DNA of 64,000 nt from a virus (IMGVR_UViG_3300045988_109836); one strand, 5' to 3'. Counted from the stretch's first letter, positions 28,526 to 64,000 are shown. Program-made: numbers and translations. The notes: generated from the sequence alone by a model not told the origin.

Positions 28526-29455
28526 TTAATAAATCCTCTTCCAATAATAACCTCTCGCTGTAAAAACTGGGAAATTATCACAAGCCCTTTTTATAGCGGT
28601 TCCGTTCACAAGATTTACGCTTCTTGCTGCATTACTAAAAGAATCATGAGTATTTATAAGATTCATATCTTTATCATATTGTTCTATTCTCATATTGCCT
28701 TTTCTTGGATATTTTACTTCATACGACCTTTTAGAAGAAGCAATTTCGATATTTTCTCTTTCTTCATTTGTTTCTTTATATTTCCATTTAAACCCTTTAC
28801 AAGTACGATTCGGATTGTTACAAGCTGTTCTAATTCCCGAAGCTCCATAACATAACCCGTAAAATTTACCAGCTTCACATACACTTTCCCATTCTCTTAT
28901 AAAATTACCGTTCAAATCATATTGCAAAATAGGTCTTTCTCTTTTTCTTGAAATAACTCTTTTCTTTCTTTCCTCAATAGTTTTCTTTTTACGATTATTA
29001 TTAATTTTACCTAATTTGGTTTTTCTTATTTTCTCTATTGATTCTTTTGAAATAACCTTTCCCTTATGAGCAAGTCCAATCTTTCTTTTTGCTTCTTCTG
29101 AATGTCTATAAAACCTTTTCTTATAAACTTCTTCTCCTAAAAATCCTCCTCCACAACACAAAGTTCTATTATATCCTACTTCCGGATTTATAGAATCAAA
29201 CTTTTCTATATAACTTCTTTCAAGATTATTAAATTCTTCTTTAGAATCTCCTTCATAAAATTCTAAAATATCTATTTTAAAGTTATGCTTGCCGTACTTT
29301 TTAAATGCTTGTTCTATAACAATACCACTGCCTTTATATCCATCATTCAGTCTATCAGTAATATGTTGCCCGATATAAATTTTACCGTTTATATTATTAG
29401 TTGTTTTATAGATAAACTTATATTTACGGTTTGTCATTTTGTTAGCTGTTCTCAT
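28526..29455 (-). CDS. Free-standing GIY-YIG homing endonuclease (I-TevI-like, with NUMOD3 and IENR1/NUMOD1-type DNA-binding repeats)
   Basis: KFIYKTTNNINGKIYIGQH is the GIY-N10-YIG motif, with downstream R, E (NLERSYIEKF) and N (GYN) residues. HSEEAKRKIGLAHKGKVISKESIEKIRKTKLGK forms NUMOD3-like repeats. There are two ILQYD/IEQYD...GF/YYWK repeats. The gene sits 4 nt downstream of terL. Confidence 0.85.
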   Translation of the reverse strand: MRTANKMTNRKYKFIYKTTNNINGKIYIGQHITDRLNDGYKGSGIVIEQAFKKYGKHNFKIDILEFYEGDSKEEFNNLERSYIEKFDSINPEVGYNRTLCCGGGFLGEEVYKKRFYRHSEEAKRKIGLAHKGKVISKESIEKIRKTKLGKINNNRKKKTIEERKKRVISRKRERPILQYDLNGNFIREWESVCEAGKFYGLCYGASGIRTACNNPNRTCKGFKWKYKETNEERENIEIASSKRSYEVKYPRKGNMRIEQYDKDMNLINTHDSFSNAARSVNLVNGTAIKRACDNFPVFTARGYYWKRIY

Positions 29456-29459: not shown

Positions 29460-31574
29460 TTATATCAAATCTACACTTATTTTTACTTCTTTATCATCTT
29501 CGCGTAAGCTATTTATGGAGAGGAACGAACTGAGTGCTATGTCGTCGTGACCGCTTGCTGCCTCCAATTTCCCGTTATCACTTCTAAACGTAATAGAGGA
29601 AAACTCACCGAACATCAAATCGACTGCCTGCCTTGTTTCTCCAATCGCATAGGGGCATTTTATCTGTCCTCTTTCAAACATTGCGGATAAAGAAGGCAAT
29701 CCGGTATATAAATCCTTCTTGTTTCCTTCCGTTGTGGTAAACGGTTCTATATTCTTAAGTCCTCTTTCCTTTGCAAGACCGGACAATATGGACTGGAAAC
29801 CGTTTGCTTCACACCGTATCTTATTAGGGTGGAAAAGTCTGTCAAGCTGTACAATCTTATCTACCTGTTCGTTGTGCGACATACCGCGCTTCCGGTAATA
29901 ATACAACAAGTAGTAATTATCCATCGCATCTTTGCCCCATACCGAATACACCGTATAGTCCGCTCCGATATTACCGGAAACCGCAAAGTCCACACCTATA
30001 TGCACCCTTGTAAGCTTGAAAGGGAAATCGTCTATACTTGACGCAAAACGTATCGTTTCCATTCCTATAACACTGCGCATCAGATATTCATAAGGAAATA
30101 TCGTTGACGTGTCACTGATAGGAACCACCAGGTATTCACGGTTGAACACAATCGTTCCGAGTTCTTCCTTTTTCGCCAATATCTGTTCAAACGTGTATCT
30201 GTCCGGCGCTAACGGTCTACCATCCGGGAACAATATCGGATATTCAAAACAATAGAAACGCTTGTCTGCCTTCAATATCTGGTACAATTCATTCGGTGCA
30301 GAAGAATAGGGTGTACCGGTTACAAGGAAATAACCGTATGGTTCCACAATCGGCTCTATCGTACCCTTCAAAAGTTCTTTCAGCTTCTCCCTTTGTTCGT
30401 CCGAATATAGAGAGCTTTCGTCCGGCATATCGTCACACAAACAAGCCCCCACGTGCAGACCTCGAATCATTGAATCCTTACCTCGCACATGCAACGTACT
30501 TCCGGTTTCCGTCTTTATGGCTGTTTCTCCAATTGAAGCCTTGTTATAGGGATTAAGCTTTTCTTTTATCAAATCGTTCGCCTCTATCTCTTCCGTTACC
30601 TTTGCTATCTGTACCTTTGCCAATGTAAAAGTGTTGGTAATATAGCACGTCTCTTTCCTGTTGGCATTGTCTACCGTGTCCTGTCTGTAGGCGGTCGGTC
30701 TTGTGTAGGACCATAAACGCCACAATATGAAGGCATAAGACCATTGATAACTGTTATGTACAACCGTTCCATCCTCCAATAAAAACTTATGGTCTCCATC
30801 GCACGCAAAACCGTAATATTCACCCTCTCCAATAGGTTCAATTTTCAACGAAGAATAATCAAATTCCGGTACCTCTTCCCCTATATTCTTGACTTTATAT
30901 CCAAGAAACAATTTTCTTATATCTTTCTGTTGTCTACATACAGCGTCTACCTCTACGTCTATAAAATAACCATTGTAATAACAGCAAAGCAAATGCCCTT
31001 CGTTCACCTCATAAGTCATTCCTTTGGACTGGCTCACTCTATACATAGGTGCAACCCCTTTATGTAATTGCAACACTGTGCGTGGTGTTGAATCAACACC
31101 CATCACTTTATCACCAACTTCTATATCTTGAATTTTCTTCAAAGACCCATCAAACATTACAACCAATGTATCAGCACTCATACACTTGCCACTCGCCCGG
31201 GCGCATAGATAACAGCTCCACGGATATAATTGCGTCAAATTGGACCACTCTATGTTACGCCACCCTAACCGGAATTTAGGCAACATGGTTGTTATGAAGT
31301 AATTAAGGGACAATATTTTAAGCGTATTATCCATAGAGGCTTTCACGTTATCCACATAGGATAGACTTTCAGAATCCAGCGTCCGTCCCAGATACAGCGC
31401 CTTTTCCGACTGATGCACCATTTCCCTAAGCATGGTGTCAACATCGTTTCCATATCCTTCAAGCAACTGGTTAAGCGCCCCTTCCGGCAGTCTCTCTATG
31501 ATATTGTCTACTGCATTGTATAGATATGTAAGCTGGTTGTTTGTAAGTATTCCTTTTCCGTCACCCGTTAGCAT
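29460..31574 (-). CDS. terL: Terminase large subunit, interrupted by a mini-intein
   Basis: The Walker A motif CARASGK|...|S is split by the intein. The Walker B-like motif is ACLCDDMPDE. RNaseH-like nuclease motifs are HIGVDFAVS and ASGHDDIALS. The ORF is 704 aa including the 144-aa intein. Confidence 0.85.
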   Translation of the reverse strand: MLTGDGKGILTNNQLTYLYNAVDNIIERLPEGALNQLLEGYGNDVDTMLREMVHQSEKALYLGRTLDSESLSYVDNVKASMDNTLKILSLNYFITTMLPKFRLGWRNIEWSNLTQLYPWSCYLCARASGKCMSADTLVVMFDGSLKKIQDIEVGDKVMGVDSTPRTVLQLHKGVAPMYRVSQSKGMTYEVNEGHLLCCYYNGYFIDVEVDAVCRQQKDIRKLFLGYKVKNIGEEVPEFDYSSLKIEPIGEGEYYGFACDGDHKFLLEDGTVVHNSYQWSYAFILWRLWSYTRPTAYRQDTVDNANRKETCYITNTFTLAKVQIAKVTEEIEANDLIKEKLNPYNKASIGETAIKTETGSTLHVRGKDSMIRGLHVGACLCDDMPDESSLYSDEQREKLKELLKGTIEPIVEPYGYFLVTGTPYSSAPNELYQILKADKRFYCFEYPILFPDGRPLAPDRYTFEQILAKKEELGTIVFNREYLVVPISDTSTIFPYEYLMRSVIGMETIRFASSIDDFPFKLTRVHIGVDFAVSGNIGADYTVYSVWGKDAMDNYYLLYYYRKRGMSHNEQVDKIVQLDRLFHPNKIRCEANGFQSILSGLAKERGLKNIEPFTTTEGNKKDLYTGLPSLSAMFERGQIKCPYAIGETRQAVDLMFGEFSSITFRSDNGKLEAASGHDDIALSSFLSINSLREDDKEVKISVDLI
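30753..31184 (-). mobile_element. Mini-intein (Hint domain, no endonuclease domain) inserted in the TerL P-loop
   Basis: This covers aa 131-274 of the ORF. It starts with Cys (CMSADTLVVMFDG; the TGT codon at 31182-31184 was verified). It has a block-B-like VNEGH and ends YYGFACDGDHKFLLEDGTVVHN, followed by a +1 Ser. Removing it restores the ARASGKS Walker A motif. Confidence 0.85.
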
Positions 31575-34918: not shown

Positions 34919-35425
34919 TCATTTTTCACAAACCTTATAAAATATACAATCCTTACATCTATTTTTGTCAAACAACCATCCTCCGTACTGACTGCAAAGT
35001 ATGAACCCCTTCTCCTTGTTCCAATACTTTTTCCTCAACATCTCCCTGTATCTTTCAGATAAACCCTCTTCCTCTTCCTTAAACGGGCTTATCCATCCTC
35101 TTTCTCGCTGGCGTTTATTGGCTATGAATACCTGGTATTTACCCCTCTTATTCCATTTTTCTATTGCCTTTGGTCCTATCAAGTTATAGGGGTCGAACAT
35201 TATTTCTTTATATCGACTGTTCTCTATCATTGACCCTTGAAACACCATATATTCCCATAATGCCCTATTAGAGGAAATCCCGGTCTTTTCCCAGAACTTT
35301 TCCATGAGTTCTATTTTTGACCGGGTTCTCTTAAGGTTGGGGGTGTAATTGAAAAGATATTCTATAATCCTTTCAATGGCTGTTTCAATCCTCCTGTTCT
35401 CCCCACAATCTTTTTGCTGTGTCAT
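34919..35425 (-). CDS. Hypothetical protein
   Basis: 168-aa ORF with a basic middle region and a C-terminal CKDCIFYKVC. No assignable family. Confidence 0.55.
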   Translation of the reverse strand: MTQQKDCGENRRIETAIERIIEYLFNYTPNLKRTRSKIELMEKFWEKTGISSNRALWEYMVFQGSMIENSRYKEIMFDPYNLIGPKAIEKWNKRGKYQVFIANKRQRERGWISPFKEEEEGLSERYREMLRKKYWNKEKGFILCSQYGGWLFDKNRCKDCIFYKVCEK

Positions 35426-35430
35426 AACAA

Positions 35431-35589
35431 TTATGAATTACACCTGTTCGCAAACTCAATAGCCGATTTCTTATCGGGGAAATAGTTTGCCCGATTACCA
35501 GTCATTACATTTATCACTTCATAAATTTTACAACCATATTCAGCCGCTTCACGAACTATATACTTAATTCTACAATTTAAAGATTTCAT
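35431..35589 (-). CDS. Hypothetical small protein, with the start moved to an internal Met
   Basis: The track ORF is 35431..35619. The ATG at 35589 (MKSLNCRIKY...) lies 9 nt downstream of an exact copy of the 15-mer GTCAAACAAATAAAA (35599-35613), the same spacing as at other starts. Confidence 0.5.
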   Translation of the reverse strand: MKSLNCRIKYIVREAAEYGCKIYEVINVMTGNRANYFPDKKSAIEFANRCNS

Positions 35590-35615
35590 AACTCTAAATT
35601 TTATTTGTTTGACAA

Positions 35616-35885: not shown

Positions 35886-36000
35886 ATCTTTTATCTTTTA
35901 TTTGTTTGACTTTCTTTCCTTATCACATTGCAAAGATAAGATTATGTTATGACATACGCAAGTGCTTATGTCTAAATTGTGGATTTATTAACATCATTTC
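35886..36000 (-). promoter_or_regulatory. Copy C of the conserved early-type promoter/operator module
   Basis: About 50 nt are nearly identical to copy B (caaagataagattatgttatgacatacgcaagtgcttatgt). The -7 box TATCTTTG is at 35931-35938 and the 15-mer box at 35896-35910. Confidence 0.7.
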
Positions 36001-36091: not shown

Positions 36092-36127
36092 ACCAAAATA
36101 AAAGGGAGTTACTAAATTGTAACTCCC
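36092..36127 (-). terminator. Intrinsic terminator after the tail tube gene
   Basis: The stem is gggagttac (36104-36112) paired with gtaactccc (36119-36127). On the minus strand it is followed by TTTTATTTTGG. Confidence 0.75.
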
Positions 36128-36153
36128 TAATTATCAATTGTTTATAATCAAAA

Positions 36154-38416: not shown

Positions 38417-39127
38417 TTACAGTCCTTTGTTTATATCAGCTTCCACACCGGGCAATTCGTAATCCCTTTGATAATTATCCGCACCCCACTTGTCAGCCGC
38501 AATGCCTGCATCCTCAAATGCAATCTTGCTAAGCAATTCTTCGTTTACCAGTGTTCCTACAATCTGGTCCAAAGTCAAATCAAGCCTTACAGACTTTATG
38601 AATATAGGAATAGGCAACACGTTCTGGTTTGTCATTAATTCCGTTATCCTTACCTCTACCAAATCATATTGGGTAGAAAGCCAGTTGTAGGAACCCATTA
38701 TAAGTGCATACAAAACTTCCGACATAATTATACTTTCCAGCATGTTGTCCGAAAGACACATTATCTCAAAGTTATGGAAACGGCTATCTCTTATTTGCCA
38801 TGCTCCACCATCGTATATCTGTCCGTTCATTTTCCCTATGGAATTTGCAGCTCCTGGGTCTGCTCCCGGCTCCCTTATTACATAGGCCGGTAATCCCGTA
38901 TTGTCTTTCGGGAATTCAAACAACACCCTTAAATTACGGGGGTTTGTCATTCCTCTCAAAAACAGCTTTTTCGCCTGGTCGTAAAAATCAAAATTCCCTT
39001 CCTTCATCCCATTAAGAAGTCTGTATAAGAAAGTATTCTGTTCGTCTCCCTTATGCAGTCTGTAATCTTCTGGTATATAGTTCAATATTGAAACTATAAA
39101 CTGCTTTACCTTCACAATTTCTATCAT
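38417..39127 (-). CDS. Neck/tail-completion protein (positional)
   Basis: 236-aa ORF just upstream of the sheath gene, overlapping its upstream neighbour by 4 nt. Confidence 0.45.
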   Translation of the reverse strand: MIEIVKVKQFIVSILNYIPEDYRLHKGDEQNTFLYRLLNGMKEGNFDFYDQAKKLFLRGMTNPRNLRVLFEFPKDNTGLPAYVIREPGADPGAANSIGKMNGQIYDGGAWQIRDSRFHNFEIMCLSDNMLESIIMSEVLYALIMGSYNWLSTQYDLVEVRITELMTNQNVLPIPIFIKSVRLDLTLDQIVGTLVNEELLSKIAFEDAGIAADKWGADNYQRDYELPGVEADINKGL

Positions 39128-39909
39128 AGCCCTTTAATTTGTTTTAATGCCTCGTCTATCGCCATTTCAGCAACATATTCTATCTGGGCCTCTTCTAAAG
39201 CCCTGTCCATTAGTTTTTTAGCTGTTATACCACCATTGAACCAGCTTGTAGGGTCTGACTTATCACTAACCCTTCTGAATGTCATATACTGACCTCTCTT
39301 TTCCTGGTCCGAACTTCGAGCCTCAACCCTTACAAGACCTTCATATTTTGCAGACTTGTGCATGTATTCCGGCACGTTCAATCCCGGTATGTTTATCTCC
39401 TTCCTGCTTCCCCTTACCTGCTGGTTTGCTGGCAAGTCTGCGAATTTCAGAGGCTGACCGCCTGCATTACGTGCCATATCGTACACATCTTTAGGCATAA
39501 CAGAACTGAATATTCCGGATTCCGCTATTGCTCCAGGCGTGGCGTGTCTGAACGGTATTGTTAGATACCATCCTAAACCGTCCTTCTTTATCTTTGCCTT
39601 GTCCGAACGTTGGAACCCTATCTTCTCGTCAAACGGTGTCGCACCCTCTTCCAGCATCATAGGAAGTGGACCTGCCGCCCTTGCAGACAATACAAATTCT
39701 ACAGATGTGGCGGAAGTCCGGTCTACCTGCATTGCAGACCGATATATTCCCCGTGTCTGATGCAGTTCAGAATCTACAAGCGCATTCCACCTTCGCATAT
39801 ACTCCTTTACTACATCATCGACAAGACGTGTTCCAAGGAATTCTGCTTCTTGTGGTGTCAATGCGAATTCCGCAACCGTTTCTGATATGTCTACATATAG
39901 AGGTAACAT
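39124..39909 (-). CDS. Neck/tail-completion structural protein (positional)
   Basis: 261-aa ORF in the neck region. No motif recognised. Confidence 0.45.
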   Translation of the reverse strand: MLPLYVDISETVAEFALTPQEAEFLGTRLVDDVVKEYMRRWNALVDSELHQTRGIYRSAMQVDRTSATSVEFVLSARAAGPLPMMLEEGATPFDEKIGFQRSDKAKIKKDGLGWYLTIPFRHATPGAIAESGIFSSVMPKDVYDMARNAGGQPLKFADLPANQQVRGSRKEINIPGLNVPEYMHKSAKYEGLVRVEARSSDQEKRGQYMTFRRVSDKSDPTSWFNGGITAKKLMDRALEEAQIEYVAEMAIDEALKQIKGL

Positions 39910-39911
39910 CT

Positions 39912-40373
39912 TTATTCTTCTGCTATATACCTAATATCACACCCGAACTTTGCAAACAACATCTCTATAAAATCGCTGTCCGTTCCCGACAGACTTTTCC
40001 GGCTCAATGTTACTACCGTCCCTATCTTATAGGCTATCACATCATCCAATAGCTTGTTGAACCCTTTTCTTTGCGCCAATGTAACGTTAAACGTCACGTC
40101 CTTATATACATCTTTGGCATGCAGTCCGTTTTCCCTGCAATATCTTTCCAGTGCTTCTATATGCTTGTTTAGGTTATGTTTGTTCATAACCCTTGCATAC
40201 ATTACATTCTTTCTTTGTCCTTTGGACGCAATCGCATATACCGATTCATCGTCGTAATCTATCCATTGTGTGGCGGAATTATGGGTCTTTATCTTTCCTT
40301 CCTTTACATAATTAGATAGTGTTGCCCGGCTTATGCCCAGGACTTCCAAAACTTTCTTTGCTCTCATATACAA
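39912..40373 (-). CDS. MerR-type HTH plus resolvase-fold protein: an IS607-TnpA-like serine recombinase homolog without the catalytic residues
   Basis: The N-terminus AKKVLEVLGISRATLSNYVKEGKIK is a MerR/excisionase-type HTH, as in IS607 TnpA. NVMYARVMNKHN aligns with the YxRVSSxxQ motif but has Met-Asn where the nucleophilic Ser should be. VVTLSRKSLSG replaces the V..kDRL.R motif. The C-terminus FIEMLFAKFGCDIRYI matches LIEYI...GCEIE. Confidence 0.6.
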   Translation of the reverse strand: MYMRAKKVLEVLGISRATLSNYVKEGKIKTHNSATQWIDYDDESVYAIASKGQRKNVMYARVMNKHNLNKHIEALERYCRENGLHAKDVYKDVTFNVTLAQRKGFNKLLDDVIAYKIGTVVTLSRKSLSGTDSDFIEMLFAKFGCDIRYIAEE

Positions 40374-42698: not shown

Positions 42699-44213
42699 TT
42701 ACAAGCCCTCTTCGCCGATGTTAACGATACGTACAATCTTCGCTGGCTGATACAATACCGGGGTACCGTAGTTCAGAATTGCAAAACGTTTGCTCGGAGA
42801 TGTAACCGCAAAGTCCATCTTCATAGTGTCTGCAAACTGCAAGTATTCGTTAATCTGGCTGTCATTGTAGTATACCAAAGCTGACTTGGTACCTGCAATG
42901 ATACGGTTGCGGTCACGTACACAATTTGCGGCTGCACCGTCATAACCTGTTGCCATCTGTGCAGCCGGAACCTCAAAGATAGGATAGTATTCGGTGTTTG
43001 CATTCAGAACCGCATTCTTCTTGGTACGGTATACCACGAAGCAAGTAGCCGGATATGCACCACCTACACCAGCGGTAAATCCAAATTCCAGTGATTCAGT
43101 AGCCGCAACAGCCTGTGCACCGCCATCAGTAATATTCAGAGGTGCAGATTCACCGTATCTATTCTTTGCTGTTACCAGGTAACCATAAGAACCTGCATGC
43201 TGTCCGAAGTTGGTCTTGGTGTCTGCGGCTTTTGCTGTAATTACTGTTCCCTTTGTCGGTGTAACCGGGGCTTTAGCACTTGTGGCACCCTTGCCTACCA
43301 TGATAGGCTTGCGTTCGTCGAAGAAACGGTCGTTCTTAATGTTAATCTTACCGAACTGAGTAGTAACGTCGTTTACAGACTGCCCCATAGTAGCACCAGT
43401 TACAGAAGCTGCAAGACCTACAATAACTCGTTTGCTTTCATGGAACATTTTAACGTAGTTGTTGAACACAATCGGGTTAGAAATGATGCGGTCGATATAA
43501 CCGTTATAAACATTCACTACAACGTTTGCAGCGTCTTGAATCAGACTGTCATTCAATACAGAACCCTGTGCGTCAATAACTGCCGGGCTGCTGAAATAAC
43601 CATCCAACAGTTGTTCAGAAGTCTTACCTTCTGCCGTGCCGCCGTCCATTTCATTGATACCCAGCATGTGTTGACGGAACACACCATCAAACTGTTCTTC
43701 CACACAAGAAGAATCAGCGTCAACAAGACGTATATCGATAATTGTACTCAAAAGGATAGTTTTGTTTTCTACTTCCTTCTGATACATATCCATATTACCA
43801 GCCAATTTAGCCAACATTCCCGGATGTGTAACTTGTCCCGATACACCCATGAACTTAGTTACGATTGACTTACGTCTGTATTGAGAATCAGTTTCCTGCG
43901 GTGTCTCGCCTTCTGCGTTGAAGATACCGACTTCCTCACCGTACTTGTACAACTGGTTGTACTGGTATACAGTGTTGTCAATCTTATGTTTAGGCATTTC
44001 CATATAGTAAACCAACTGGTTCATACGGTTGCCCAAAATCTTCAAAACTGAATCCAAAGATTCAACTTTCAGACCACCACCGTTGTTGATTTCGTTGTTA
44101 TACTGCATTCCGGTCTTAAGACCTGCTTCCATCGCTTTCAAGATTTCTGCCGAATCCATGCCGCCCAGTACATCACCCGTACCGTTTTGATTGCTATAAT
44201 TATACAAATCCAT
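42699..44213 (-). CDS. Major capsid protein
   Basis: 504-aa ORF following the protease and scaffold genes, with a strong terminator directly downstream. The call rests on gene order and size only. Confidence 0.65.
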   Translation of the reverse strand: MDLYNYSNQNGTGDVLGGMDSAEILKAMEAGLKTGMQYNNEINNGGGLKVESLDSVLKILGNRMNQLVYYMEMPKHKIDNTVYQYNQLYKYGEEVGIFNAEGETPQETDSQYRRKSIVTKFMGVSGQVTHPGMLAKLAGNMDMYQKEVENKTILLSTIIDIRLVDADSSCVEEQFDGVFRQHMLGINEMDGGTAEGKTSEQLLDGYFSSPAVIDAQGSVLNDSLIQDAANVVVNVYNGYIDRIISNPIVFNNYVKMFHESKRVIVGLAASVTGATMGQSVNDVTTQFGKINIKNDRFFDERKPIMVGKGATSAKAPVTPTKGTVITAKAADTKTNFGQHAGSYGYLVTAKNRYGESAPLNITDGGAQAVAATESLEFGFTAGVGGAYPATCFVVYRTKKNAVLNANTEYYPIFEVPAAQMATGYDGAAANCVRDRNRIIAGTKSALVYYNDSQINEYLQFADTMKMDFAVTSPSKRFAILNYGTPVLYQPAKIVRIVNIGEEGL

Positions 44214-51195: not shown

Positions 51196-51223
51196 AATTA
51201 ACTCCTTTCTTTAAGTTTCTATG

Positions 51224-51255
51224 CAAATATACAAAACTGTTCAGAATTGAACAAA
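51224..51255 (-). promoter_or_regulatory. Consensus Bacteroidota sigma-A-type promoter
   Basis: On the minus strand, TTTG is at 51252-51255, followed by a 20-nt spacer and TATATTTG at 51224-51231. The site is about 30 nt upstream of the ATG at 51195. Confidence 0.5.
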
Positions 51256-51256
51256 T

Positions 51257-52186
51257 TTATAAGTCTATTTTTTTAAGAAACCTATCAAGTTCTTTTTGAT
51301 TTAACACTTTGTTATCATAAATCACTCCATTATCGGAATTACCGTCATACAATTTAACGGACTTAAATTTATCTTTCAACGGAGTTTCGATAACTTTCTT
51401 GAAAGATTCGGATGCGCCCTTATGTCCTTTTCTCGCTATTTCTGTAGGGACATACCGTTTCGTTCTCTCAAAACGTTTCTGTATTCTATCCAAAGCCGTA
51501 TTGAAATCGGTTGCCACTCCTACCAAATGAACATCATAACCTTGTGCCTTCAATTCGTCAACAAGTTTTTCAAGTTTTGCCGGATTTCCAAAAACAGCAT
51601 CTTTCACAAAAGAAGATTTTTTGGAAACATATTCTTTATCAATCTGTTTTCCTATATCCGACACTTCTTCATGTACATAAGAAGCTGCCTTCTTCGGGTC
51701 TATATCCTTCACTCTTTCATAGTCCGGTATCATGTCGCGCATATCGTCCACGTCAATAACGGGCAACTTGTCTATAGACGGGTCTTTCTCTTTCATCTTC
51801 TTAAGATAATACCCTTTGCCCGAACCACCACCGCCAAGCATTAAGTAAGCACGCGGTTTGGTCTCAAACAACATTTTCTTCCGATATTCAGACTTCACTT
51901 TATTATGGACTTTAATCTGTCTGTCTCGTTTCCAAACACCGCCTTCCTTATAAAGGTCTTCCGTTGTCTTGGTTAAGTCGGCTTTCTCTTCCTCTGTAGC
52001 CTTTCTTTTCTTGTAGGGTAATCCCACAATACCAAGTTTTCGGTTTACCGCGTTGTTCACATATACGCCTTGTTGTGCCTTCGCAATTTCCAAAAGCGTA
52101 TCATACAATTCTGTACGTCCGAAGCTCTTTTCTAAAAGAGCCTTGTTTATGTATCTGTCCAGTTTTAATTCATCGAAGCTTTCCAT
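51257..52186 (-). CDS. Zeta-toxin-like P-loop kinase domain protein
   Basis: 309 aa. The Walker A motif is MLGGGGSGKG. VIDVDDMRD follows, and then GYDVHLVGVATDFNTALDRIQKRFERTKRYVP, matching the Zeta_toxin (PF06414-type) layout. It lies immediately downstream of the portal gene. Confidence 0.55.
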   Translation of the reverse strand: MESFDELKLDRYINKALLEKSFGRTELYDTLLEIAKAQQGVYVNNAVNRKLGIVGLPYKKRKATEEEKADLTKTTEDLYKEGGVWKRDRQIKVHNKVKSEYRKKMLFETKPRAYLMLGGGGSGKGYYLKKMKEKDPSIDKLPVIDVDDMRDMIPDYERVKDIDPKKAASYVHEEVSDIGKQIDKEYVSKKSSFVKDAVFGNPAKLEKLVDELKAQGYDVHLVGVATDFNTALDRIQKRFERTKRYVPTEIARKGHKGASESFKKVIETPLKDKFKSVKLYDGNSDNGVIYDNKVLNQKELDRFLKKIDL

Positions 52187-52192: not shown

Positions 52193-53902
52193 TTATTTGT
52201 AAAGATTTTTTAAATAATAATCAACTGCTGGTTTCATTATAGGATTGTCGTTAAACGACTTGTATTGTGCAAACGGGTCTTCCTCGTCTTCCGGTACACC
52301 TTCCGGCTGCTGTCCTGGTTGTGAAGCTCCGAACATCTTGTTTTGTTCTTCTGCCTGCTTCATTCCCTGGTACACCTGGTTAAGAATGATGTCCTTTTCC
52401 GGGTCAAAGTCTCGTCCGTTATACTTCTTGAAGATATCCTGCATGGCAACCATTCCGCTACTCAATTTCTCGGAATCAAGTTTTACCTGTGCTTCCTCGT
52501 CTTCCACCTCTATTCCGGTAAATGCAAACTCATAGTTTTCGTCTAACTCACTTACAATATACTTCGTTATGATACCCTGCAAGAATATCAATAGAGGCTT
52601 CAATCCTTTTTCCCGGCTGTGCTTCAATCTTTCGCGCTGCCCGTCCTGTCCGAATATCTGCTGACTTTCCTTGAAATTGAATCCAAGTTCGGACGGGTCT
52701 ATACGGTATACGGAACATGTCATTATAATAAGAAACTTTATCCATTCGTTAAATTCCATATCACGATTGCTAAGTTTCTGTAAATCAACCCATTCCAAAT
52801 CGATACCGTTTATAACGGGTGTGCGGTGACTGTTGCTTACCCCTGCCATCGTCTGTGTCCATGCCTGCCGAAACTCTTGCAATGTACTGTTTGATATATT
52901 GGGGTTCTTTATATTGATAAACCCTTTAGGCTGTGACCCCTGCGAAAAAAAATTTGCATTATAGGAAAAGCCCCACAATATCCAGGTTATGATATTTACC
53001 AGCGTTTCCAATTCCGATATCCCATATCCGTTTCTTCTTACATCAGATGTCTTGTTTCTGATACCAAAACCAAGCTCCCACGGGTAATACAATATCGGTT
53101 CCTTCGTTATAGGATTGTGAAGAATCATCTCGTCCCACACCATACAGTAACGCGGCAAATGCCCCTTAAATCTGTACTGCTCGAAGCCTTCCCTTTGTCT
53201 TGGGTCTACACTGTCCAGAAAGCGTATCAAAGAAGCGTCCACGGCACGGAATTTCTGCAATTCCCACATTCTGTTTCGCACCATCTCAAAGGCCAACTGG
53301 TCTAATGTAAGACTATCCGACATTATTTTACTTACAAATTCCTGCAAGCTGTCTACATTATCCCATTTGTCCGTCCATCCTCCCTTTTCCAGGAATTCGA
53401 CTATCTTTGCAATCTTTTTCTTGTCCTCGTTTGTCAGTTTTTCATCCCCGGTAGAAAAAAGGCTTTTCTTCTTTCTGATTGTGTAGCCTTCCTTCTGCTC
53501 GTCTTCCGAAAAGTCCATAAAGTTCATTATCTGCTCCACACGTGTAGACACGATACTTTTCACTATATGGATATCTCCCATCCGACGCAATACGGAAAAG
53601 GATAGAACCCCTTTGGAATCCTTGAATCCTCTTCCGTTGCCGGATATGTCGTTAGGGTCAAAGAAAACAGACTGTATTCTTGTCGGCTGTCTGTTGATTT
53701 CTCCCAGATACAAATTAGCTTTCATTATCTCCCCTGCATCATTCGAGTTCAGTGCAGCCTGCAATTTGCTTTGGAAAGCCATAGGTGCCGCCTTCTGTAA
53801 TCTGTCTATTTCTTCAATGGACAAACTCGAAAGGCTTGCTATCAAATCCGGCTTTTCCGCTTTTTGTATAATCTTTCTTTTTCTCCTTCCCATTGTAAAC
53901 AA
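52193..53902 (-). CDS. Portal protein
   Basis: 569 aa. The region NGYGISELETLVNIITWILWGFSYNANFFSQGSQPKGFINI...HRTPVINGIDLEWVDLQKLSNRDMEFNEWIKFLI matches the Phage_portal core pattern. It lies upstream of the MuF-like gene. Confidence 0.7.
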   Translation of the reverse strand: MFTMGRRKRKIIQKAEKPDLIASLSSLSIEEIDRLQKAAPMAFQSKLQAALNSNDAGEIMKANLYLGEINRQPTRIQSVFFDPNDISGNGRGFKDSKGVLSFSVLRRMGDIHIVKSIVSTRVEQIMNFMDFSEDEQKEGYTIRKKKSLFSTGDEKLTNEDKKKIAKIVEFLEKGGWTDKWDNVDSLQEFVSKIMSDSLTLDQLAFEMVRNRMWELQKFRAVDASLIRFLDSVDPRQREGFEQYRFKGHLPRYCMVWDEMILHNPITKEPILYYPWELGFGIRNKTSDVRRNGYGISELETLVNIITWILWGFSYNANFFSQGSQPKGFINIKNPNISNSTLQEFRQAWTQTMAGVSNSHRTPVINGIDLEWVDLQKLSNRDMEFNEWIKFLIIMTCSVYRIDPSELGFNFKESQQIFGQDGQRERLKHSREKGLKPLLIFLQGIITKYIVSELDENYEFAFTGIEVEDEEAQVKLDSEKLSSGMVAMQDIFKKYNGRDFDPEKDIILNQVYQGMKQAEEQNKMFGASQPGQQPEGVPEDEEDPFAQYKSFNDNPIMKPAVDYYLKNLYK

Positions 53903-59004: not shown

Positions 59005-59579
59005 TAATTTTTAGCTTCTTTCTTGCTAAACAAAAACAAAGAAAAAGGGGAATTTTCAAAAAGAAGCTAATGTTTAGTGAGAAAACTAAAGAGTAACCCC
59101 TTTTTCTTTTGCGGCTCCTAAATCTTCATCAGACCTTAGCCGCTATGTTTAAGCACTGCAAACATAGGGATAATTTTTCAATCCACAAAATTTTCTCGGA
59201 AAAATTTTCGCCGCGCCGCGCTTTTTCCAAAATTCCTTCTTGTTTCCGTCTTCCCTTTCGCTTCATCTCCCCTTTTTCTATTTTCACTTCCGTTAACACT
59301 TCCTATATCTCACTTTATCCCCCTTCCCCATTTTTCACTCTTTCCCCTTCCTCCCCCAAACCCCCTATTGCTATATTGCAATATCTTCCTCCTATTAACA
59401 TACCCGTTAGGGTAAAAGAAAAAGGGGAATTTCATACCCCTTAAGGGGTTAGATAATACCCTTATGGTAAAATGTCAAAGTGTTGATTTCCAGATAGTTA
59501 TAAATAGTAATAAATATTGACAGAAATTTCCTCGAAAAAGCCTACCTTTACACGTGTTTAATCTTAAAAATTGTAAAAT
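59005..59579. promoter_or_regulatory. Divergent 575-bp non-coding hub with iteron-like repeats and a polypyrimidine tract, candidate origin or regulatory region
   Basis: AGAAAAAGGGG occurs four times: 59040-59050 (+), 59417-59427 (+), 59097-59107 (-) and 59269-59279 (-). The two direct copies extend to an 18-nt perfect repeat at 59038-59055 and 59415-59432. The 11-bp inverted repeat ttagcttcttt/aaagaagctaa is at about 59011-59070. The palindrome ccccttaagggg is at 59437-59448. A C+T-rich tract of about 150 nt spans 59221-59370. Confidence 0.5.
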
Positions 59580-60035
59580 ATGAAAGTGATTTATGAATCG
59601 AAAATTGCGAAAATCATCATTCCGAATTTTTCTGCAATCCTAATTTTTTGCTGGCTGCTATGCAAGAAATCGAAAGAGTATTATGACGAAAAATTTCTGA
59701 AACACGAAGAAACCCACTCCTACCAGTGGAAGTCGTTAATGATACCGGGAACCGTGCTTTTTAGCGGTCTTTCCGGTGTTTTCTCATGTCCTTGGCTACT
59801 TCTCCTTATCCCGTTGACATTCTATCTGTATTACGTCCTGGAATGGCTTGTGCGTGTGATAGGTGCCTTAATCAAATATCACCCCGGTTTCAGTGGCGGT
59901 ATAAAGAAATGGATTAAGAGAATCCAGGCAATAAACCATGATTGTTATCATGCAATCGTGTTTGAACAAGAAGCTAATGCAGTAGAAAAAGGATTGGTGG
60001 ATTATGGTTTTTTATCATTCTTCAAGTATTATTAA
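59580..60035 (+). CDS. Membrane protein with an HExxH motif, the only independent plus-strand gene
   Basis: 151 aa with 3-4 hydrophobic helices. The HEETH motif is at aa ~42-46, with a downstream FEQEANAVE. An A-rich leader precedes the ATG. Confidence 0.6.
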   Translation: MKVIYESKIAKIIIPNFSAILIFCWLLCKKSKEYYDEKFLKHEETHSYQWKSLMIPGTVLFSGLSGVFSCPWLLLLIPLTFYLYYVLEWLVRVIGALIKYHPGFSGGIKKWIKRIQAINHDCYHAIVFEQEANAVEKGLVDYGFLSFFKYY

Positions 60036-60049
60036 CTCGATTGTCAAGA

Positions 60050-60085
60050 TTTAGAAAAAAGAAAAGGGACGTTTCACAACGTCCC
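60050..60085 (-). terminator. Intrinsic terminator shared by convergent genes
   Basis: The stem is gggacgtt (60066-60073) paired with aacgtccc (60078-60085). On the minus strand it is followed by TTTTCTTTTTTC. On the plus strand there is a hairpin but no U-run. Confidence 0.65.
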
Positions 60086-60162
60086 AGTCTGTCGGGTTTC
60101 GCTAAACCCATGTTCTTATACTACAAAACAAAATTGAATAATTATACAAATTGAGTGAATAT

Positions 60163-60498
60163 TTATGCGATAATCTTCTTTATAGAAACCGCGTTCCGCT
60201 TGATATTCCCGATTTTCCGGCAAACCTCATTAGTGGAAATATCCCTGTAGGAAGAAAGAATTTCTGAAATTTCCGCTATCTTGTCTACCAAGATATTCAT
60301 TTCTTCCAATCTTTTCCAGTTAACGGAGACCGAAAAATGATTCTTGATAAATTCATCACGGGCTGTTCTTGCTTCTTCTACAGTACGGAAATAACCAATA
60401 TTGTACTTCTTCTTCTCCAGTTCTATTATGACCCGGTACGGCTTGTTTTTGGACCGCTTGTCATAATAGTAGATATACCTATCACTCCTTGGTTTCAT
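60163..60498 (-). CDS. AP2-domain DNA-binding protein
   Basis: PYRVIIELEKKKYNIGYFRTVEEARTARDEFI fits the phage AP2/ERF-like domain pattern (Y.a.i...gk...lG.F.t.EEAa.ay). The start is set at M19 (MKPRSDRY) to limit overlap with the upstream gene. Confidence 0.6.
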   Translation of the reverse strand: MKPRSDRYIYYYDKRSKNKPYRVIIELEKKKYNIGYFRTVEEARTARDEFIKNHFSVSVNWKRLEEMNILVDKIAEISEILSSYRDISTNEVCRKIGNIKRNAVSIKKIIA

Positions 60499-60706
60499 TG
60501 TCTTCTTCCTCCTTCTTTTTGAGAACCGGAATAGGTCCCAGGCAGTGAACAAAGATGGCCGTGATAAACGGGGAAATGATAAGCGCTAAAAGCATCCATA
60601 CTCCAAAACTTCTGTTCATTCTTTCTGCCGTGGAACCTACCTCAGCACTCAGCATGAGATGAACGATAAAAATAATGATACATAAAAACACGATACTTGC
60701 ATTCAT
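60482..60706 (-). CDS. Small membrane protein
   Basis: 74 aa with two hydrophobic helices and an acidic tail. Confidence 0.5.
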   Translation of the reverse strand: MNASIVFLCIIIFIVHLMLSAEVGSTAERMNRSFGVWMLLALIISPFITAIFVHCLGPIPVLKKKEEEDNETKE

Positions 60707-60709
60707 AGC

Positions 60710-60913
60710 TTAATCCTCCTTTTTATTTAGTTTGTTAATAATTTTTACTGCATATTCCTTTAGGGTATCATCGTCCATCACTTCTCCCATCTCTTTATTT
60801 ATTAGGGATAACGTGCCGTCCAGGTTCTTTCTGTATACGGCAACCATACTCATGCTTTCGCCCTTTGCCGGGTCATACACGACCCGGTAGTTTCCTTTGC
60901 TTAATGTTCTCAT
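60710..60913 (-). CDS. Hypothetical small protein
   Basis: 67-aa ORF overlapping its upstream neighbour by 4 nt. Confidence 0.5.
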   Translation of the reverse strand: MRTLSKGNYRVVYDPAKGESMSMVAVYRKNLDGTLSLINKEMGEVMDDDTLKEYAVKIINKLNKKED

Positions 60914-61143
60914 TTCTGTAATAAAAGCTTTATAATGACATTGTTAATAGTAAATTCCTCAATCTCTTTTATGTCCTTTTCAGAGCACATGTGTTTGTTT
61001 TCGGTATATTCTATGATGTTACCGTGAAGAATATCTGTAGGAGACGGAAAACGCTTTATTTCGGCCACTTTCCATATTCCGAACTTGACTGTTACATATA
61101 CCTCGTATGAATCGGGGTTCTTGAAAAAGTCTATATTTGCCAT
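60910..61143 (-). CDS. Hypothetical small protein
   Basis: 77-aa ORF. A variant of the pre-ATG box (GTCAAGCGAATAAAA, 61155-61169) lies 11 nt upstream. Confidence 0.5.
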   Translation of the reverse strand: MANIDFFKNPDSYEVYVTVKFGIWKVAEIKRFPSPTDILHGNIIEYTENKHMCSEKDIKEIEEFTINNVIIKLLLQK

Positions 61144-61171
61144 GATTGTAAAGATTTTATTCGCTTGACAA

Positions 61172-61378
61172 TTAATTTAACGCCCATTCAATGGCATGTT
61201 CGGCTGATTCTTGATCGGGATATATAATACATTCATATTCGCTTGATTGATAGAAGCAATATCCTAATTTGTTGAAATTGTCTTTTACCACCGATTCAAG
61301 GAATTTTGGACAAATTTCTTTGCTATATTCACCGTTAACTATTTGTCCTCCCATTGTTTCAATTACGTAAACTTCCAT
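61172..61378 (-). CDS. Hypothetical small protein, first gene after promoter copy D
   Basis: 68-aa ORF. The 15-mer box lies 5 nt upstream of the ATG. Confidence 0.55.
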   Translation of the reverse strand: MEVYVIETMGGQIVNGEYSKEICPKFLESVVKDNFNKLGYCFYQSSEYECIIYPDQESAEHAIEWALN

Positions 61379-61500
61379 AGCGTTTTTATTTGTTTGACCT
61401 AATTAACCGTCTCCCTTAAGAAGACATTGCAAATATAAGGCCTTATTATGACATACGCAACTGCGTATGTCATTTTAACATAAGATTAACATATAATCCC
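61379..61500 (-). promoter_or_regulatory. Copy D of the conserved promoter/operator module, with a perfect 26-bp palindrome
   Basis: ATGACATACGCA-GT-TGCGTATGTCAT is at 61448-61473. The -33-like TTGC is at 61457-61460 in the palindrome centre. A 19-nt spacer follows, then the -7 box TATATTTG at 61430-61437. The 15-mer box is at 61384-61398. Confidence 0.7.
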
Positions 61501-61506
61501 AAAGAA

Positions 61507-61548
61507 AACACCCGGAAACATTCTTTCACGAAGAGCGTAACCGGGTGT
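61507..61548 (-). terminator. Probable terminator after the 134-aa gene
   Basis: The stem is aacacccgg (61507-61515) paired with ccgggtgt (61541-61548), with a 25-nt loop. On the minus strand it is followed by TTTTCTTT. Confidence 0.45.
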
Positions 61549-61584
61549 CAGTCAAACAAATATAAAATTTAGAGAAAGAAGGTT

Positions 61585-61989
61585 CTAAACTATGTTTGGG
61601 TAGAAATAAGGCGCATTATCCCAATCATTTATTATCTCTTTGAGTATTTCCCAGGAAACAAAGATAGTATGGTCTGAAAGAGCCGCTTTCTTGTTTCCGG
61701 TCCAGTAAATAGAAGAAAAAACCGGGTTCTTGGACTGGATAATACTTTCAACAGTGCGTCCCTCCATATCCTCAATGATTTTATGATAGGCGAAAGAACT
61801 GATATTTCGACCCAGTACAAGGCAAAGTATATCGCCAGATTTGCACTTTAGGGCACGCACAATGGACGTTTTATCCTCATCCTTTACGTTATCATTATCA
61901 CGAAGCAAAAGTAGCTTATTAGAGCTGCAAAGCCAGTCAATATACTGGCTTCCTCCGCTGTATGTAAATTCGTTTTTCCTTGCCATCAC
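61585..61989 (-). CDS. Hypothetical protein
   Basis: 134-aa ORF overlapping its upstream neighbour by 4 nt. Confidence 0.55.
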   Translation of the reverse strand: MMARKNEFTYSGGSQYIDWLCSSNKLLLLRDNDNVKDEDKTSIVRALKCKSGDILCLVLGRNISSFAYHKIIEDMEGRTVESIIQSKNPVFSSIYWTGNKKAALSDHTIFVSWEILKEIINDWDNAPYFYPNIV

Positions 61990-62357
61990 ATCATGTCTTT
62001 ATAATCGTCTTCCAAACGTTTGATTTCTTCCTGGAGTTCTTTACTCATAAGGAATAGGAATTGTTTCTGCTTATCGTCCAGTTCTTCGTCAAAAGAACCC
62101 ATCTTTCTTGAAATATTGTCAAGATAACGGATAAACCGCTTTCTCTGAATAAAATCGATATAGGACAAAGTATAAATCAGAACATTCATCCTTTTCTTCA
62201 TGTTTACCTGTCCTCCTACAATCCATAGAAAGAAGAACATGTGAAGAACCACAAGGACAACCAGACATATAAATATCGCTGTTACCATAGCTGCAAATAT
62301 ATAAAAATAAAACAAATAATTGATACTAAAGAACGTGCAAATTTTCGTTCCTGTCAA
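61986..62357 (-). CDS. Membrane protein
   Basis: 123 aa with an N-terminal hydrophobic region (two TM helices) and a charged C-terminal helix. The start may be an internal Met (62288). Confidence 0.5.
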   Translation of the reverse strand: MTGTKICTFFSINYLFYFYIFAAMVTAIFICLVVLVVLHMFFFLWIVGGQVNMKKRMNVLIYTLSYIDFIQRKRFIRYLDNISRKMGSFDEELDDKQKQFLFLMSKELQEEIKRLEDDYKDMM

Positions 62358-62487
62358 TATATACGGGTCGAGAAACCAGGGAACACGGAGAAATGATTAC
62401 GTATTTGCCCGGTCGGACTTTTCGTAACGTCATTCCCTGGTATTCGACAATATGTCCGACCCACACGTAACACTCCTTCTTAATCAT
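62326..62487 (-). CDS. Hypothetical small protein, with the start moved to the ATG at 62487
   Basis: The track ORF opens at a TTG. The internal ATG overlaps the upstream stop as ATGATTAA, a translational-coupling arrangement. 53 aa. Confidence 0.35.
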   Translation of the reverse strand: MIKKECYVWVGHIVEYQGMTLRKVRPGKYVIISPCSLVSRPVYIDRNENLHVL

Positions 62488-63001
62488 TGAGAGCCGCTTT
62501 AATCTCAAACAGTTTCTTTTCCGCTTCTTCCTTTGTCTGGAAATAGTTAAGGTTCTTGTATCGCGAATTGTCTATCGATTCGTCCGTTTCCGTAGCTTGG
62601 AAGATTGTAAAAGAATCAAAATTGATACTGTAATAATGATTACCTATTACAGCACGCCAACGAAGCTTTTTAAGGCATTTTTCTTTCTCGTCATAGTATA
62701 ACCCATTTTCAGAAAGAGCGTTGTTTATACGCTTCTTTTCTTCTTCTGTAGAGAATCTGTATCCACAACTGACATAATCATAAAAGGAAGAAGTTCTTTT
62801 TGAAAGATGAAGTCTGCCGTTTTTATAATAGGCATGGAAGTACATGTTTTCCAGCAACGGGTCTTCTTCACTTTCCTTGTATATCACTATCGTACCGTCT
62901 TCATGCGTCAGACAATCGCCGTCGTTAAGCTCCATTAAATAGTAATCACTATCATGTATGGAAATAAATTTCCTGTCTTTGTCACATAATACCTTTTTCA
63001 T
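62480..63001 (-). CDS. Hypothetical protein
   Basis: 173-aa ORF. No motif recognised. Confidence 0.55.
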   Translation of the reverse strand: MKKVLCDKDRKFISIHDSDYYLMELNDGDCLTHEDGTIVIYKESEEDPLLENMYFHAYYKNGRLHLSKRTSSFYDYVSCGYRFSTEEEKKRINNALSENGLYYDEKEKCLKKLRWRAVIGNHYYSINFDSFTIFQATETDESIDNSRYKNLNYFQTKEEAEKKLFEIKAALND

Positions 63002-63018
63002 AATTGTAAAATATTTTA

Positions 63019-63201
63019 TTAGAAAACATAATTAATCAAATCAGAAATCCAGGACATGAACTGTATCATTCCAAAGAATAGGAAGGTGCAAACGATTGCA
63101 CCTACTCCGTACCAGAAACGTACCCACCATTCACGATATTTGGTCTTCAATACTTTCTTGCCGAAACGGCCGTTGAAGAAATTTATAAGCTGTTTTTTCA
63201 T
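63019..63201 (-). CDS. Small membrane protein
   Basis: 60 aa with one long hydrophobic helix (WYGVGAIVCTFLFFGMIQFMSWI). Confidence 0.45.
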   Translation of the reverse strand: MKKQLINFFNGRFGKKVLKTKYREWWVRFWYGVGAIVCTFLFFGMIQFMSWISDLINYVF

Positions 63202-63213
63202 AATGTAAAATTT

Positions 63214-63459
63214 TTAGAATTCAACAAGAATAAGACGTTTACCGCTTTCCTTCTCACTGACCCACATATGGTTGGAACCGAAACCGTAATCAAAAAGAGA
63301 ATTAAATGTAACCGGATATTCTTTGGAAACAACCTTCATTGCCTCCCTTAATTCTTTTTCGTCATTGCACTTGGTGATTTCGTTAAGTATATTGACATAC
63401 ATAGAGATTGCTATTGGTGAATGATAGACATTCAACGAGTTTTCTACAATTGCTTTCAT
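63214..63459 (-). CDS. Hypothetical small protein
   Basis: 81-aa ORF in the operon. Confidence 0.5.
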   Translation of the reverse strand: MKAIVENSLNVYHSPIAISMYVNILNEITKCNDEKELREAMKVVSKEYPVTFNSLFDYGFGSNHMWVSEKESGKRLILVEF

Positions 63460-63487
63460 AACTGTGTATATTGTGGTAGCCCGAAGG

Positions 63488-63667
63488 CTACCAGAACATT
63501 ATTACTATTTCATCGTTTTTATAGCCAAGACAAGACCCTTTCTCAATGGCTTCTTCCAGTGTCTTTACTTCAAACAGCACTTTCTTTTTCTTATAATCCA
63601 AACCGTAGTAACTTACTGTTTTGTTATGGGCGTTAATTCCGTTTTTGTGTATTTCCAAAAGTTTCAT
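63488..63667 (-). CDS. Hypothetical 59-aa protein, below the ORF-track size cutoff
   Basis: My own translation is MKLLEIHKNGINAHNKTVSYYGLDYKKKKVLFEVKTLEEAIEKGSCLGYKNDEIVIMFW*. Its ATG lies 11 nt downstream of a variant pre-ATG box (GTTGAACAAATAAAA, 63679-63693). It fills an otherwise empty 220-nt gap. Confidence 0.5.
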   Translation of the reverse strand: MKLLEIHKNGINAHNKTVSYYGLDYKKKKVLFEVKTLEEAIEKGSCLGYKNDEIVIMFW

Positions 63668-63680
63668 ATTTCTTTAATTT

Positions 63681-63905
63681 TTATTTGTTCAACATTTCAA
63701 GCTGTCTTTGAAGGAGTTTTGCGCGGTTCTGCTCATTCTCTGCAAACCCCATATTGCCGATAGACTTGTAAAACTCAACGTTTTCAAGTGCTTCTGCAAG
63801 TGCTTGTTTCTTTTGGGAAATCATAGAGGAAATTTCGTTATTATTACCTCTCTTTGCCATTTCTTCAAGTTCCGTACCTCTTACCTTGTAAAATTCTGCT
63901 TTCAT
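63681..63905 (-). CDS. Hypothetical small coiled-coil protein, first gene after promoter copy E
   Basis: 74-aa ORF. A variant box (GTCAAACAAATTAAA) lies 11 nt upstream. Confidence 0.55.
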   Translation of the reverse strand: MKAEFYKVRGTELEEMAKRGNNNEISSMISQKKQALAEALENVEFYKSIGNMGFAENEQNRAKLLQRQLEMLNK

Positions 63906-64000
63906 AATCTTAATTATTTAATTTGTTTGACCTTTGTTTCTTATCACATTGCAAATATAAGGCCTTATTATGACATACGCAACTGCGTATGTCATTTTAA
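63906..64000 (-). promoter_or_regulatory. Copy E of the conserved promoter/operator module, cut by the window edge
   Basis: About 53 nt are identical to copy D (attgcaaatataaggccttattatgacatacgcaactgcgtatgtcattttaa). The palindrome is at 63970-63995 and the -7 box TATATTTG at 63952-63959. Confidence 0.7.

Follow-up and report, generated by a model that had tools for sequence, protein, structure and literature searches.

A probable promoter-and-leader cassette, repeated in an uncultivated Bacteroidota gut phage, with a palindrome over the -33 element in most copies

The DNA analysed here, a stretch of 64,000 nt (the window), comes from an uncultivated gut phage of about 107 kb with a Bacteroidota host. 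Nearly all genes of the window point to the minus strand; the plus strand is biased in base composition (T 34%, A 26%, C 24%, G 16%), and sizeable plus-strand ORFs that are clear of minus-strand coding are limited to 7119-8582, 59109-59444 and 59580-60035. Matches to PHROG families include (i) terL and the homing endonuclease, portal and major capsid protein genes (Table 1), (ii) two DNA methyltransferases, an exonuclease and a protease, and (iii) tail and virion proteins, while the scans for tRNA genes and for Rfam families both returned no match in the window. A 3420-aa ORF with internal repeats (period of about 492-498 nt) occupies 8636-18898 and probably encodes a fibre or surface protein built of repeats. 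Megablast against GenBank phages finds no close relative, and 60000-64000 is without a match. In its capsid protein the phage shares 34% identity with B. thetaiotaomicron phages DAC19-23 and SJC03 and about 30% with SPO1-like Bacillus phages, which use their own sigma factors; the nearest capsid record, at 68% identity, is the human-faecal contig MT835500.

The window carries a cassette of about 100-120 nt in five copies (A to E), all on the minus strand, and the family is recovered independently by repeat finding. A preliminary description had reported five copies of a promoter/operator module, and all were re-read in place (Table 1). The core 15-mer TTGCGTATGTCATAA occurs exactly five times in the window; with up to three mismatches it has 10 matches, compared to a shuffle mean of 2.56, and 0 of 100 shuffles reach 10. 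The parts follow in a set order: one or two TGTTAA elements, a TTG, a 19-nt spacer, a TAHHTTTG box, a conserved G, a variable leader, an A-rich 15-mer and the ATG. The parts are those first described, but the module reaches further upstream than had been thought, to the TGTTAA elements, which form a doublet in D and E and a single ATGTTAA in A, B and C. As had been claimed, TTGC, the 19-nt spacer and a Bacteroidota -7 box (TATCTTTG or TATATTTG) are found in five of five copies. The leader, given earlier as about 30 nt, measures 20-33 nt from the -7 box to the A-rich 15-mer, and in B and D its 5' end forms a small hairpin (GUCUUCUUAAGGGAGAC). The 15-mer itself, GTCAAACAAATAAAA, had been assigned to every copy; it is exact in B, C and D but has one mismatch in E, and A's leader runs off the window with no 15-mer visible (A-type leaders in relatives differ in sequence). 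The genes that follow the modules are small and mostly lack family matches, the first gene after B being weakly SprT-like; DNA-metabolism genes are among those downstream of copy C.

Table 1. Coordinates of the cassette copies, their parts and selected features of the window.
Feature	Position	Strand	Remarks
terL	29460-31574		PHROG match
Homing endonuclease	28526-29455		PHROG 314
Portal	52193-53902		PHROG match
Major capsid protein	42699-44213		PHROG match
Core 15-mer TTGCGTATGTCATAA sites	69-83, 28475-28489, 35947-35961, 61446-61460, 63968-63982
Copy A	1-117	minus	downstream end cut by window
Copy A, ATGTTAA	111-117
Copy A, right arm/core	69-83
Copy A, -7 box	53-60
Copy A, predicted +1	48
Copy B	28402-28525	minus	begins directly 3' of the homing-endonuclease stop codon
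Copy B, ATGTTAA	28516-28522
Copy B, palindrome	28480-28499
Copy B, -7 box	28459-28466
Copy B, predicted +1	28454
Copy B, leader 15-mer	28411-28425
Copy C	35886-36000	minus
Copy C, ATGTTAA	35988-35994	minus
Copy C, palindrome	35951-35972	minus
Copy C, -7 box	35931-35938	minus
Copy C, predicted +1	35926
Copy C, leader 15-mer	35896-35910
Copy D	61379-61500	minus
Copy D, palindrome	61448-61473	minus
Copy D, TTG(C)	61457-61460	minus
Copy D, TGTTAA doublet TGTTAATCTTATGTTAAAA	61473-61491	minus	about -66 to -61 and -55 to -48, 11 bp apart
Copy D, -7 box TATATTTG	61430-61437	minus
Copy D, predicted +1	61425	minus	G
Copy D, leader	61379-61425	minus	47 nt; 5' hairpin GUCUUCUUAAGGGAGAC
Copy D, leader 15-mer	61384-61398	minus
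Copy D, ATG	61376-61378	minus
Copy E	63906-64000	minus	upstream end cut by window
Copy E, palindrome	63970-63995
Copy E, -7 box	63952-63959
Copy E, predicted +1	63947
Copy E, leader 15-mer	63917-63931
Terminator-like hairpin with U tract	61501-61553	minus	lies directly upstream of module D and closes operon E
Terminator-like hairpin	36103-36128	minus	about 100 nt upstream of copy C
Terminator-like hairpin	27072-27106	minus	closes the four-small-gene cassette of copy B (28401 down to 27159)
Terminator-like hairpin	60066-60085	minus	ends the copy-D operon

The -7 element of F. johnsoniae is T-12 A-11 H H T-8 T-7 T-6 G-5, with a consensus of TTTG/TAnnTTTG (PMC6847099), and the same position rule (T-12...G-5) sets the module numbering and the predicted +1 used here. 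So numbered, each of the five copies has TAHHTTTG at -12 to -5 with no G at -10 or -9, (G/C/A)TTG at -36 to -33 (three of four consensus bases) with the TTG at -35 to -33, and 20 nt from the TTG to the TA of the -7 box. Transcription is predicted to start at the conserved G that lies 5 nt past the -7 box and forms the first base in nearly all leader variants (GTG... or GTC...). The density of TAnnTTTG is 6.75/kb in sense intergenic DNA (18 sites), 0.57/kb in coding and 0.75/kb in antisense DNA, a 12-fold enrichment over coding; since the core accompanies only five of the 18 intergenic sites, the module is one promoter class among several. For translation, A residues at -11 to -13 before the ATG are reported to favour initiation in the Bacteroidetes, a phylum without Shine-Dalgarno sequences (PMC6847099), and the leader 15-mer sets A residues at these positions. 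The same 15-mer stands before an internal gene that has no promoter (35599-35613), and versions with two mismatches stand before other internal genes (61155-61169 and 63679-63693); thus, it is a separate translation-initiation element.

A sensitive DNA search with module D returns weak matches (E 0.1-0.4) in intergenic regions of the B. fragilis phages B124-14 and BF766P1. B124-14 (L204) has at least four modules of its own, of about 120 nt, on the minus strand at 38022, 24576, 6459 and 4247, which are unannotated in its record. The B124-14 module includes a terminator hairpin with a T run, TGTTAAA-N4-TGTTAAAA, a distance of 35 nt to CCTTATATTTGCA(A/G)TGTC and an A-rich leader GTCAAAAGGAAACAAATTACTAACA followed by a small ORF. 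It shares with the window's module the order of terminator, TGTTAA-N5-TGTTAAAA, (A/G)TTGC, spacer of about 19 nt, CCTTATATTTGCAATGTC, A-rich AAACAAAT leader and small ORF. Copies D and E match it fully in having the TGTTAA doublet 11 bp apart and 34-35 nt to the -7 box (35 nt in D, E and B124-14 alike), and 22 of the 26 bases around the -7 box are identical (our own count from the alignment). The two phages are unrelated, B124-14 being a 47-kb siphovirus and the window phage a phage of about 107 kb with an SPO1-like capsid. B124-14 lacks a palindrome over the -33 element, yet its -47 to -37 region is still conserved among its copies; on the sequences compared, the palindrome is the window clade's own addition. 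The promoter P_BfP1E6 ('B. fragilis phage promoter'), which we take to be derived from B124-14, is described as having UP elements and the -7 consensus; it greatly exceeds native promoters in strength and acts constitutively in uninfected Bacteroides. Together with the B124-14 layout, this strong constitutive promoter supports the module as a strong promoter for the host polymerase; by analogy, promoter strength is expected to be high and the TGTTAA elements are probably UP-like. The canonical -7 box, the TTG at -35 to -33, the 12-fold intergenic enrichment and the B124-14 layout all uphold the earlier promoter reading, and the module is very probably a promoter cassette.

Terminator-like hairpins are present before C and D and inside A's leader, while none is found at copy B. 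The hairpin upstream of module D folds as RNA at -22 kcal/mol (z -4.4) and is followed by UUUUCUUU. The module B transcript probably covers the four small genes and stops at 27072-27106, short of the virion genes. The preliminary description had placed terL and the methyltransferases under the module; no strong terminator is seen between copy C and terL, but a plain -7 promoter candidate lies in this interval at 34884. The leader hairpin of copy A, GGGAG..CTCCC (20-37), is followed by TTTCTT and folds at -20.7 kcal/mol (z -3.7); in a clade of relatives with 64% terL identity (L154, 2983-3001) the stem is GGGGA..TCCCC, with both sides changed and the pairing kept. This hairpin may work as an attenuator, or else be the terminator of the upstream operon in a displaced position.

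The palindrome is perfect in D and E, where it measures 12+2+12 (26 bp, ATGACATACGCA-GT-TGCGTATGTCAT) and forms the window's longest close-spaced inverted repeats outside coding sequence. The preliminary description had placed a palindrome in every copy; its perfect form in D and E and its 9+2+9 form with one mismatch in B are as described, but C is 10+2+10, also with one mismatch, and A has the right arm only. The would-be left arm of A matches at 5 of 9 positions and holds the stop codon (88-90) of the gene at 88-648. The palindrome spans about -48 to -23 and is centred at -35.5, over the -33 element, so a bound dimer would occlude this element. Among orthologues anchored on the post-C gene, the left arm ACATAAGCA is conserved like the core, unlike the 16 variable nt that adjoin it upstream; thus, the palindrome is probably functional.

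The two arms show no compensatory covariation; at the variable A/G pair, complementary combinations are if anything too rare, with about 27 observed compared to about 39 expected under independence (our own tally of the variant table). The commonest form keeps the same A/G mismatch, GACATA..TATCTC hybrid arms are common, and the right-arm variants TATCTC and TTGCTTAT pair with unchanged left arms; only one family is compensated (GAGATAA..TTATCTC, 10 instances). Variants coexist inside single genomes, and in the E copy of a relative with 98.8% identity the right arm is mutated. Perfect palindromes are rare and confined to the window's nearest relatives, and the near-identity of the copies could in part be due to recent duplication or gene conversion rather than selection. 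The palindrome had been read as an operator and the module as an early on/off switch: the constrained left arm speaks for this, but the missing covariation, the narrow range of the perfect form and the loss of the motif in more distant relatives speak against it, and from sequence comparison an operator is quite possible without being the probable answer.

Searched against 185,579 reference genomes, the palindrome skeleton gives 13 matches in unrelated taxa, about the estimated chance number, and the sole Bacteroidaceae match is an ordinary terminator; therefore, the palindrome is not a host regulatory motif and has no prophage copy there. Literature searches with the motif strings return nothing. 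Two proteins had been proposed as binders. That at 39912-40373 proves to be an IS607-type serine recombinase (Resolvase plus HTH_17/MerR-like HTH) and is not supported as a regulator; it is one of two adjoining ORFs (153 aa for the recombinase, 261 aa for its neighbour) at 39124-40373, within the virion-gene block, and the pair resembles a mobile element that has inserted there more than a regulator of the phage. That at 60163-60498, named as an AP2-domain protein, is likewise unsupported, with no Pfam AP2 or other Pfam hit, E >= 0.6 in the PDB sequence search, and a single-sequence AlphaFold model (pLDDT 71) for which the best Foldseek match has an E of 2 and AP2 domains are seen in non-significant hits alone. 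The window ORFs scanned yield no HTH or RHH regulator; the window leaves out about 43 kb of the genome.

The distribution of the module was followed by an exact-pattern scan of IMG/VR, which gives at least 120 matching stretches on contigs of up to 105-108 kb, and by comparison of terL-centred loci, which comprise a 96-100% identity clade with the module, a 64% clade and single contigs at 85% and 65%. In each genome of the 96-100% clade, the 30-45% of sequence that is covered contains 5-10 modules, all on one strand and spread along the genome, and a whole genome would hold at least ten. In a 98.8%-identical relative, an extra D/E-type module lies 4.1 kb past the window end and heads nine small ORFs. 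Directly downstream of modules, the first ORFs are short (median 89 aa) and show 39 different N-terminal 8-mers, a number that is an upper bound on gene families as some are clearly variants of one gene.

The palindrome, which the earlier operator reading expected in related phages, is kept within the 96-100% clade, but the motif is absent at 64-85% terL identity and at 68% capsid identity; the 64% clade, L198 (85%), L202 and MT835500 (68% capsid) lack the module core, and each has other motifs. In the 64% clade, the A-type promoter is conserved in position as TTTG-19-TATTTTTG, with TGTTAAAA at 34 nt from the -7 box and with the leader hairpin kept, and has no palindrome. This clade has a palindrome of its own, CAATTATTG-N3/4-CAATAGTTG, whose arms are conserved and whose centre varies; a whole-collection scan finds it in one copy per genome, and it is thus not a multi-copy module there. 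L198 has two module copies that share a conserved spacer without a palindrome. MT835500 (L121, 1326-10932) carries at least six copies of the palindrome TGTAACA-N6-TGTTACA, one of which overlaps the -7 box before a 55-aa ORF that is XRE-type HTH-like by eye, a layout that resembles a classical autoregulated operator; no homologue of this 55-aa putative HTH protein is found in the window or the loci searched. Like lambda-type Cro/CI sites and those of MT835500, the module has an inverted repeat of about 20-26 bp over a core promoter element at several promoters per genome. By contrast with classical operators, it comes without an identified repressor and without a symmetry kept by covariation, and its palindrome lies on the -33 element, whereas that of MT835500 lies on the -7 box or the spacer.

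The copies are mosaic. Their upstream halves pair as B/C and D/E and their leader halves as B/D and C/E; the sub-blocks that had been reported as shared, tgtcttcttaaggga by B and D and tttgcaatgtgataag by C and E, were confirmed. Among 144 distinct instances, every combination of UP type, -7 variant and leader type is found, and 14 of the 36 types of upstream flank are joined to two or more downstream types (conversely, 15 of 37). Orthologues anchored only on the post-C gene are almost maximally diverse in nucleotide sequence upstream, and this diversity falls sharply where the module begins with GAAATGATGTTAA. Copies B and C are enriched in alignment breakpoints, about 14% of all breakpoints falling in about 1.5% of the region (our own arithmetic from the histogram). 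Flank reassortment, breakpoints, sub-block combinations and the drop in diversity at the module edge agree with the modular recombination suggested earlier. Breakpoints cluster equally at module-free gene junctions, such as 29400 and 35400-35500; thus, the module is one of several exchange points, and on this evidence it is reasonably likely to act as a recombination linker. The homing-endonuclease gene between terL and module B is present or absent among close relatives, with breakpoints at both of its ends.

A known cassette of this kind is the PeSL of T4-like phages, for which mini-circles are excised, promoter and terminator activity is measured, and stem-loops can overlap the -35 box (PMC2839356, PMC4122927). 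PeSLs and the module are both conserved composites of about 100 bp that combine AT-rich upstream DNA, a host-type promoter that is strong (predicted to be so in the module) and a stem-loop or terminator; both have a translation start signal directly before the ATG and are repeated many times before small orphan genes; and both mark the places where close relatives differ by insertion, deletion or replacement, crossovers falling within the element itself. They differ in phage group and host phylum and in their promoter elements (-35/-10 in PeSLs, -33/-7 in the module). The PeSL stem-loop is a G/C-rich terminator, whereas the module palindrome is AT-rich, of 9-12 bp and without a U tract, and separate terminators accompany only some copies.

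The explanation we prefer, which is on balance probable, is a promoter-and-leader cassette for the host polymerase that doubles as a homology patch and carries a palindrome best read as the site of a dimeric protein. The host primary RNA polymerase (Bacteroidota sigma-A type) would read the cassettes, each of which would supply UP-like TGTTAA, the TTG of the -33 element, the 19-nt spacer, the TAHHTTTG of the -7 element and a G start, as well as a variable 5' leader, often with a hairpin first, and an A-rich block in place of a Shine-Dalgarno sequence. Cassettes would be placed, often just past a terminator, before small, probably early, genes all round the genome. As the copies are near-identical, they would also serve as homology patches for the exchange of flanking genes and sub-blocks, which would resemble exchange at T4 PeSLs. 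A dimeric DNA-binding protein on the palindrome would cover the -33 element and switch the promoters off together. Of this account, the sequences directly show the anatomy, the repetition, the host-type promoter signals, the mosaic junctions and the left-arm constraint, while promoter strength, the start site, the UP function and the operator with its protein are inferences. A bolder and rather doubtful extension is that some fast-evolving phage regulator, acting through this operator, silences ten or more identical strong promoters simultaneously, or sets their timing, throughout an abundant family of uncultivated gut Bacteroidota phages of about 107 kb, that the order of shut-off follows from graded operators (perfect in D/E, imperfect in B/C, a half-site in A), that related lineages have their own operator-regulator pairs on the same chassis, and that the same cassettes drive gene shuffling.

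The palindrome may instead have no dedicated protein, the cassette being a plain strong promoter in which the right arm is simply the -33 element plus spacer, and the left arm either contacts polymerase as a proximal UP subsite or is shared because young copies were homogenised by recombination. The lack of arm covariation, the lasting mismatch and the rarity of the perfect form fit this alternative, as do the B124-14 modules, which share the layout and a conserved -47 to -37 region without a palindrome, and the conserved, palindrome-free spacer of L198. It accounts poorly for a left arm that is an 8/9 to 12/12 inverted match at fixed spacing (chance below about 1e-3, an estimate and not a computed value), that is conserved though the adjacent upstream bases vary, and that lies in a region whose equivalent is wholly different between phages presumably using similar host polymerases; it is conceivable but not likely. 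A palindrome-bound phage protein could also act positively, by recruiting or remodelling the polymerase as MotA/AsiA do for T4 middle promoters, which likewise join a phage-specific upstream motif (the MotA box at -30) to a host-type downstream element (the host -10). A phage-specific extended motif over the -33 element with a host-like -7 box, and modules before DNA-metabolism genes (copy C), are in keeping with such activation. The module differs from MotA-type promoters, however, in retaining TTG at -35 to -33 in all copies, in having a palindromic motif and in preceding early-looking genes. A TTG at the right distance means that -33 recognition needs no replacement, the nearest relative in layout is constitutive in uninfected cells, and the downstream genes are mostly small, as is typical of early regions, which leaves this activator-dependent alternative improbable.

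The palindrome could act as a nucleic-acid hairpin: in RNA that reads through from the upstream operon it might attenuate transcription or be a site of processing, or it might promote cassette exchange as a cruciform or as a target of nucleases. As RNA, the D/E palindrome folds stably (-16.7 kcal/mol, z -5.6), the stem-loops of PeSLs can lie over the -35 box and modules are mosaic junctions; yet no U tract follows it, the B palindrome folds at only -4.9 kcal/mol, a value that 27 of 200 shuffles equal or better, the mismatches are A.G and C.C rather than wobble pairs, and separate terminator hairpins already lie upstream of C and D. A hairpin function is accordingly quite improbable. Recognition by a phage-encoded sigma factor or RNA polymerase would suit the unusually invariant core 15-mer and the distantly SPO1-like capsid; this reading is rejected as the -7 box is the host consensus, and it is further opposed by the 13 other, core-free intergenic sites that share the -7 box, by the absence of a hit to such families in the window and by the recurrence of the layout in an unrelated siphovirus, so that its likelihood is very small.

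At the level of sequence, the cassettes give a picture of how transcription is laid out for small, probably host-takeover, genes in a widespread family of uncultivated gut phages, and they suggest that portable promoter cassettes like the PeSLs, and the shuffling of genes through such cassettes, extend beyond T4-like phages. The kind of cassette is already known and current understanding is not overturned; what is new is a palindrome grafted onto it in an uncharacterised phage family. The module is also a candidate very strong promoter and 5' UTR part for Bacteroides engineering, which, if the operator reading is true, would come with a natural repressor site.

Other elements of the window are of note. 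The terL gene has an insertion of about 144 aa (residues ~131-274, ending ...VVHN|S; window ~30750-31185) that looks like a mini-intein; it is missing from several 96-100%-identical relatives, such as L172, in which residues 130 and 275 are contiguous, and is longer in the relative L152 than in the window. At 51210-51262 lies a plain -33/-7 candidate, TTTG-20-TATATTTG, with a different palindrome, TGTTCAATTCTGAACA, in its spacer. Before virion genes, TAAATTTG boxes overlap stop codons at 51259, 44940 and 40425, and these boxes and the candidate at 51210-51262 may form a second promoter class.
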